Positions 33,904 to 34,463 of a DNA stretch of 64,000 bases are shown here, piece after piece. The DNA lies in NCBI RefSeq assembly GCF_055900595.2, contig NZ_CM148325.1; one strand, given 5' to 3'. Made by a program: the position numbers and the translations under genes. How positions within the stretch are numbered: position 1 is the stretch's first letter; every line of letters starts with the position of its first letter. A model generated the notes under the pieces. The model searched no databases, was not told where the DNA came from, and worked only from the letters and a program-made list of their open reading frames with translations.

Positions 33904-33988
33904 GGTGGGGTTCCCGAGCGGCCAAAGGGAGCAGACTGTAAATCTGCCGTCATCGACTTCGAAGGTTCGAATCCTTCCCCCACCACCA
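33904..33988 (+). tRNA. tyrT: tRNA-Tyr (anticodon GUA), copy 1
   Basis: 85-nt sequence GGTGGGGTTCCCGAGCGGCCAAAGGGAGCAGACTGTAAATCTGCC...CCACCA with GTA anticodon and long variable arm. Confidence 0.95.
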
Positions 33989-34022
33989 TCTCAAGCATTA
34001 CATCAAAATTTGAATTATCCCT

Positions 34023-34107
34023 GGTGGGGTTCCCGAGCGGCCAAAGGGAGCAGACTGTAAATCTGCCGTCATCGACTTCGAAGGTTCGAATCCTTCCCCC
34101 ACCACCA
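34023..34107 (+). tRNA. tyrV: tRNA-Tyr (anticodon GUA), copy 2
   Basis: Identical 85-nt tRNA-Tyr sequence 34 bp downstream of copy 1. Confidence 0.95.
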
Positions 34108-34463
34108 TCACTTTCAAAAGTTCCTGAAATCCCCAACAAATCCACAATTAAATATTCTGCCCATGCGGGGAAGGATGAGAAGCTTCGACTAAGGTTCGAC
34201 TCGAGCGCCAGCGAGAGAGCGTTGCCGCAGGCAACGACCCGTAGGGCGAAGCGCGCAGCGCTGAGTAATCCTTCCCCCACCACCATCACTTTCAAAAACC
34301 CCTGTATTCTCCAACGAATCCGTAACTGAATATTCTGCCCATGCGGGGAAGGATGAGAAGCTTCGACTAAGGTTCGACTCGAGCGCCAGCGAGAGAGCAT
34401 TGCCGCAGGCAACGACCCGTAGGGCGAAGCGCGCAGCGCTGAGTAATCCTTCCCCACCACCAT
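34108..34463 (+). repeat. Two tandem 178-bp repeat units downstream of the tRNA-Tyr genes (rtT / tpr region)
   Basis: Near-identical units at 34108-34285 and 34286-34463, each ending in the tRNA 3-prime-end-like AATCCTTCCCCCACCACCA. Confidence 0.7.

Follow-up and report, generated by a model that had tools for sequence, protein, structure and literature searches.

Two tRNA-Tyr genes, a 34-bp spacer and two RtT repeat units: very probably a common allelic form of the Escherichia coli tyrTV operon

A 64,000-nucleotide stretch of contig NZ_CM148325.1 (assembly GCF_055900595.2), referred to here as the window, carries two tRNA-Tyr genes followed by a short tandem repeat array. The operon raises the question of whether its departures from the Escherichia coli K-12 reference, namely a short intergenic spacer, fewer repeat units and a tpr-like reading frame closed at its sixth codon, amount to anything unusual. 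The original prediction had drawn attention to these three features by contrast with the K-12 arrangement. Pairwise alignment to the K-12 region bears out the anatomy and the reality of the differences, but not the significance implied for them. We conclude that the region is very probably a common allele of the E. coli tyrTV operon, and that its tpr-like frames are a feature of a structured-RNA repeat. The form of the operon is known biology, that is, ordinary variation at an already understood locus. The classical tyrT locus, in work attributed to Egan and Landy in 1978 and to Rossi and colleagues in 1981, reportedly contains a 178-bp sequence repeated 3.14 times.

The host of the tyrTV locus is an E. 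coli other than K-12. The upstream flank (positions 26000-33740; 7.7 kb comprising adhE, tdk, hns, galU, rssB, rssA, ychJ and purU) matches E. coli strains N96 and EC42405 at 99.7% identity, and essentially every one of the 5,426 complete E. coli genomes at 95% or more. The purU-narI interval, which measures 898 bp from the purU stop to the narI end, holds the two identical tRNA-Tyr(GUA) genes in tandem with a TTTACA/TATGAT promoter upstream (Table 1), the hexamers of which are unchanged across the aligned E. coli strains. A non-coli Escherichia had also been considered, the repeat region being 90-97% identical, and was dropped on the basis of the 99.7% E. coli flanks; the lower identity over the repeat region comes from hypervariability of the array.

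Table 1. Positions of the operon features and flanking elements in the window
Feature	Position	Strand	Basis
tyrT promoter, TTTACA-16 nt-TATGAT, TG ahead of the -10 hexamer	33826-33853	+	Promoter scan, 10/12 matches
tRNA-Tyr(GUA) gene 1, tyrT equivalent	33904-33988	+	ARAGORN; Rfam tRNA, 53.4 bits; same as K-12
34-bp intergenic spacer, short-spacer allele	33989-34022	+	MG1655 alignment; same as last 34 bp of the K-12 209-bp spacer
tRNA-Tyr(GUA) gene 2, tyrV equivalent	34023-34107	+	ARAGORN; sequence same as K-12
178-bp repeat unit 1 (U1), holding RtT copy 1	34089-34266	+	TRF
RtT copy 1	34154-34285	+	Rfam RF00391, 132.8 bits, model positions 1-130 of 130
tpr-like frame, unit 1: ATG AGA AGC TTC GAC TAA (MRSFD-stop)	34175-34192	+	Sequence
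178-bp repeat unit 2 (U2), holding RtT copy 2	34267-34444	+	TRF
RtT copy 2	34332-34462	+	Rfam RF00391, 120 bits, model positions 1-130 of 130
tpr-like frame, unit 2 (MRSFD-stop)	34353-34370	+	Sequence
Terminal partial repeat, 18-nt copy of the tRNA 3' end, one C fewer (AATCCTTCCCCACCACCA)	34445-34462	+	Sequence
Intrinsic terminator of convergent narI; far edge of the locus	34591-34612	-	Terminator scan
narI stop	34632-34634	-	

The closest known system is the K-12 locus tyrT-tyrV-rttR-tpr (b1231, b1230, b4425 and b1229), which shares with the window the purU-narI position, the promoter hexamers, the tRNA sequence, a 178-bp unit opening with the 19-nt tRNA 3' end, and the 34 bp that immediately precede the second tRNA gene. 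The window differs from it in having no 175-bp degenerate unit between the tRNA genes, two downstream units instead of three, TAA rather than CAA in unit 1 with no 29-codon tpr frame, CCCGTAGGG within its units, and a REP-like element from which a 14-bp stretch is missing. This element lies between the array and narI, and the absent 14 bp (GCGCATCCGACAAC, at 34566/34567) are present in K-12 and most strains; the same deletion is found in AST85, EC42405, 2013C-4282 and WL297, and the region is overlapped by the doubtful K-12 ORF ychS. Two substitutions in the tyrT 5' leader, at 33868 and 33870 (CCCCACAAGGG versus CCCGATAAGGG in K-12), are common to the window's lineage.

ARAGORN coordinates and sequence matching confirm that the two tRNA-Tyr genes are identical and 34 bp apart; both have a single 85-nt sequence, which is also that of K-12 tyrT and tyrV. 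The originally stated K-12 spacer of about 200 bp was likewise accurate, the MG1655 tyrT-tyrV spacer measuring 209 bp. The MG1655 alignment resolves this spacer into a 175-bp degenerate RtT-like unit, flanked by two copies of the 19-nt tRNA 3' end (AATCCTTCCCCCACCACCA), and the same 34 bp that separate the genes in the window. Exactly one repeat step separates the short form from the long one, the difference that recombination between the 19-nt anchors would be expected to produce.

A 73-mer specific to the K-12 spacer unit occurs in 1,920 of the 5,426 complete E. coli genomes (35%). Tandem tRNA-Tyr genes at either spacing were detected in 4,518 of the same genomes, by a 100-nt query (tRNA end, spacer and tRNA start) whose BLAST pieces became joined across the long spacer. 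By subtraction, rather than by direct count, the short spacer is present in approximately 2,598 genomes (~48%) and a single tRNA gene in ~17%. The 34-bp spacer was also read in 16 other E. coli genomes. In other species of Enterobacterales, 64 loci from the pattern scan described below have two tandem tRNA-Tyr genes, with spacers of 22-50 bp in 37, 186-233 bp in 18, and other lengths in nine. The 34-bp spacer is the commonest state in E. coli and the short class is also the commonest across the Enterobacterales; the long spacer of K-12 is a minority form in E. coli. A larger arrangement is found in EcPF16 (L017, positions 1266-2216), which has three tandem tRNA-Tyr genes with a 209-bp spacer holding an RtT-like unit between each pair, then one unit after the tRNA genes and a deletion that fuses the array to a truncated narX.

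Downstream of the tRNA genes, TRF reports a period of 178 bp with 2.1 copies and 93% matches (34089-34466). Together with the Rfam matches, this agrees with the predicted two tandem 178-bp units, which span 34089-34444, and the figure of about three units for K-12 was also correct, MG1655 having three full ones. The last 19 nt of tRNA gene 2 (34089-34107) double as the first 19 nt of unit 1, so that 19-nt anchors open the units at 34089 and 34267, and a shortened anchor stands at 34445. The same terminal partial repeat, with four Cs, ends the arrays of EC42405, 2013C-4282 and WL297.

Unit number varies even between close relatives that all have the 34-bp spacer, with one unit in N96, AST85 and 2017-02-2CC, two in E500002, three each in 2013C-4282 and WL297, and four each in EC42405 and 2020CK-00188. 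A systematic sample of 13 complete E. coli genomes, made up of each third row of an evenly spaced ranking, includes five with two tRNA genes and the 34-bp spacer (2, 2, 2, 3 and 1 downstream units), five with two tRNA genes and the 209-bp spacer (1, 3, 3, 3 and 0 units), one with three tRNA genes (1 unit) and two with one tRNA gene (1 and 0 units). The exact architecture of the window, two tRNA genes with a 34-bp spacer and two units, is present in three of the 13, although the uncertainty of unit-number and frame-state frequencies from a sample of this size is wide. Across the E. coli genomes read, unit number ranges from 0 to 4 and tRNA gene number from 1 to 3. Two units are within this ordinary range, and the three-unit array of K-12 is as common as any.

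The closed tpr frame is as originally read: each unit carries ATGAGAAGCTTCGAC followed by TAA, at codon 6, and neither holds an intact 29-codon frame. The CAA stated for this codon in K-12 is right for the annotated tpr (b1229), which lies in unit 1, but the K-12 units as a set read TAA (spacer unit), CAA (unit 1), TAA (unit 2) and CAA (unit 3). Unit 3 is in turn stopped at codon 10 (CGA to TGA), and the full frame is present in one of the four K-12 units. Among the 13 sampled E. coli genomes, the intact 29-codon frame is found in seven; in the six without it, every frame is closed by TAA at codon 6 or by TGA at codon 10, or there is no unit.

A wider comparison used a pattern scan of species-representative genomes, which required a conserved 22-base pattern, had E. 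coli itself among its omissions, and returned 89 loci from Citrobacter, Enterobacter, Klebsiella, Salmonella, Serratia, Pantoea and other Enterobacterales. Codon 6 is TAA in 90 of 134 Enterobacterales units, CAA in 38 and GAA in six, and a frame of 29-30 codons is present in just eight. Exact 63-mers around codon 6 match 49 records in the T version and 2,050 in the C version, each count representing one sequence version and not the frame state per genome. TAA at codon 6 is the majority state of the repeat family and not a new change, and a short spacer together with the T state is the typical enterobacterial condition.

The presence of TAA in both units had been taken to suggest homogenisation of the repeat, a reading that comparison of the units makes unnecessary. 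Of the 178 positions, 12 distinguish U1 from U2: 11 fall within the leader (34120-34150), and the core contributes a single difference (34221 G versus 34399 A). U1 has no differences from unit 1 of 2013C-4282 and WL297, the codon-6 arrays of which are T,C,T and T,C,C, respectively, and U2 matches the lone unit of 2017-02-2CC exactly. Over its first 65 nt U2 is also the same as unit 1 of EC42405, and its remainder is nearest to unit 3 of 2013C-4282. Among the relatives, T and C units occur together in varying order, and individual units are mosaics. Since U1 and U2 have different exact counterparts, their shared TAA would reflect which units unequal crossing-over retained, most plausibly two pre-existing T-type units, an account that calls for neither a new mutation nor a conversion at the TAA site. 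Both retained units being of the T type, the window lacks a full-length tpr frame, a lack that it shares with roughly half of E. coli.

Concerted evolution does act on the array, with CCCGTAGGG, rather than TAA, as its clean marker. Both RtT copies of the window carry this A-to-T change (at 34242 and 34420) where CCCGAAGGG would otherwise stand, and it is found in nearly every unit of the lineage (AST85, N96, EC42405, 2013C-4282 and WL297), the exception being one unit of 2020CK-00188 with CCCGCAGGG. Neither K-12-like strains nor any other species sampled have the marker, by which a conserved U-A pair in helix 3 becomes a U.U mismatch.

The count of two units would be an artefact if a short-read assembler had collapsed a true array of at least three, such as the T,C,T of 2013C-4282. 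The units are 93% alike with nearly identical RtT cores, which favours a collapse; in addition, the nearest unit matches come from strains with three or four units, and the exact unit pair of the window occurs in none of the 5,426 complete genomes, so the combination rests on one assembly. We nevertheless consider a collapse improbable. Complete genomes commonly have two units with a 34-bp spacer (the three sampled genomes described above, plus C8 and E500002), each window unit occurs base-for-base in an independent genome, the 11 leader differences would anchor reads, and neither junction is chimeric-looking. Even a real collapse would leave the verdict of ordinary variation unchanged.

What the units appear to preserve is an RNA structure. 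Both RtT copies cover the full 130-position RF00391 model at scores (Table 1) well above the gathering score of 45 bits, and both retain the consensus helices with one or two non-standard pairs. They follow a tRNA-Tyr gene immediately on its 3' side, in the same orientation, and end in a copy of the tRNA 3' end. In copy 1 the sole non-standard pair is the lineage-wide U.U in helix 3; copy 2 has this mismatch and a second pair broken by the G-to-A change at 34399, and its 3' tail is one C short. There is otherwise nothing of substance to separate them from the family. RtT is reported to be an RNA released from the tyrT primary transcript (Bosl & Kersten 1991, as cited in PMC3318445), and the older literature, as cited in PMC3318445 and bioRxiv 10.1101/2024.07.17.603846, links it to the stringent response and has Rho-dependent termination taking place within the repeat array.

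The base that opens codon 6 (T at 34190 in unit 1) faces a G in helix 2 of the Rfam consensus structure, and the one that opens codon 10 faces a G in a small hairpin. Both of the C-to-T changes that create stops therefore convert G-C into G-U and keep the pairing, and the change at codon 6 is predicted to be neutral for the RtT RNA. Across 103 distinct units, 98.5% of structure cells are standard pairs, compared with 37-55% when the partners are slid, and compensatory changes are seen at five pairs; at codon 6, 70 units have a U-G pair, 30 a C-G pair and two a U-A pair. Based on these sequence comparisons, the units appear to be constrained as structured RNA (RtT) and not as a protein gene, with the tpr frame opening and closing freely.

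The conservation of frame expected of a protein gene is not found, the frame being intact in seven of the 13 sampled E. coli genomes and 90 of 134 units across species being stopped at codon 6. PGAP annotates no tpr CDS in any of the RefSeq genomes fetched, including those with intact frames, and does annotate RtT. Tpr has no match among the Pfam and NCBIfam models, and a literature search for detection of the Tpr protein or for the 178-bp repeat returned passing mentions and no report of detection. The tpr ATG directly adjoins GGGGAAGG, the G-rich strand of RtT helix 1, with zero spacing from any Shine-Dalgarno-like sequence. Taken together, these data suggest that tpr is probably not a functional gene, although non-conservation of the frame does not prove that Tpr is never made in K-12.

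We give almost no credence to the alternative in which tpr is a real small-protein gene that suffered a CAA-to-TAA nonsense mutation followed by gene conversion into the second unit: codon 6 of the tpr annotated in K-12 (b1229) is indeed CAA, one or two intact 29-codon frames persist in some relatives, and concerted evolution occurs in the array (the GTAGGG marker in nearly all lineage units), but most of the family has TAA, as do two of the four K-12 units, the frame is missing in six of 13 sampled E. coli genomes, the ATG abuts helix 1 without Shine-Dalgarno spacing, and no Pfam or NCBIfam family model covers Tpr. Point mutation with gene conversion was likewise dropped as the origin of both TAA codons, given the family majority and given that the window units are not recent copies of each other, each having an exact T-type counterpart in another strain.

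The preferred reading, a common allelic form of tyrTV, can be accommodated in a simple model. A single strong sigma-70 promoter would drive two identical tRNA-Tyr genes and then two RtT repeat units, the locus forming a ladder of direct repeats built from the 19-nt anchors (the last 19 nt of the tRNA) and the 178-bp units. Through unequal homologous recombination between such repeats, or slippage of replication across them, units and also whole tRNA genes would be gained, lost and reshuffled. The expected outcome is the short or long spacer, 0-4 downstream units and mosaic units among strains, of which the window would simply keep two T-type units with no C-type unit between them.

We infer this recombination from genome comparison, which distinguishes the present case from the unequal crossing-over polymorphism that it otherwise resembles in its variation by one whole unit at a time (175, 178 or 294 bp) between flanking direct repeats, its mosaic units and its tRNA gene number of 1-3. 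Russell and colleagues are said to have described, in 1970, the loss of one duplicated su+III tRNA-Tyr gene by unequal recombination.

These results indicate that K-12 is a poor reference for tyrTV, its long spacer being a minority form and its intact tpr frame being absent from about half of the sampled genomes. Because K-12 is atypical at tyrTV, differences from it there should not be flagged as anomalies. The comparative data also strengthen the case that tpr (b1229) is a chance frame within a repeat that forms a structured RNA, a point that bears on curation of the K-12 annotation.

A more speculative proposal is that the tRNA-Tyr/RtT ladder is a recombination-driven contingency locus whose settings are selected in each E. 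coli lineage rather than drifting neutrally. We regard this as highly improbable; were it true, frequent changes in the number of RtT copies (0-4) and tRNA-Tyr genes (1-3) would adjust the dosage of tRNA-Tyr or of RtT, or else the amount of Rho-dependent read-through reaching the nar region.

Several other observations were made at or near such arrays. An island with fatty-acid desaturase and sterol desaturase family proteins directly follows the tRNA-Tyr 3' end in AVS0970 (L022, about 2089-3893), a strain with a single tRNA gene and no RtT. In N96 the desaturase island (L004, about 10790-12741) comes after the tRNA-3'-end copy at the close of the first RtT unit. Repetition of the 19-nt tRNA end may provide several sites for integration. 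RtT units were also found in contigs labelled Chryseobacterium sp. 18061 (L086, beside tandem tRNA-Tyr genes) and a Cellvibrionaceae MAG (L043), both of which are probably contamination or mis-binned enterobacterial contigs.

Elsewhere in the window, Rfam identifies prophage-type small RNAs on the plus strand at 3677-4151, comprising DicF (3677-3728), isrK (3963-4039) and C4 antisense RNA (4064-4151). Two rdlD-family antitoxin RNAs, belonging to ldr/rdl type I toxin-antitoxin repeats, lie on the minus strand at 50577-50643 and 51114-51179. At the corresponding locus K-12 has three copies, and the pair in the window looks like another tandem array of variable copy number.
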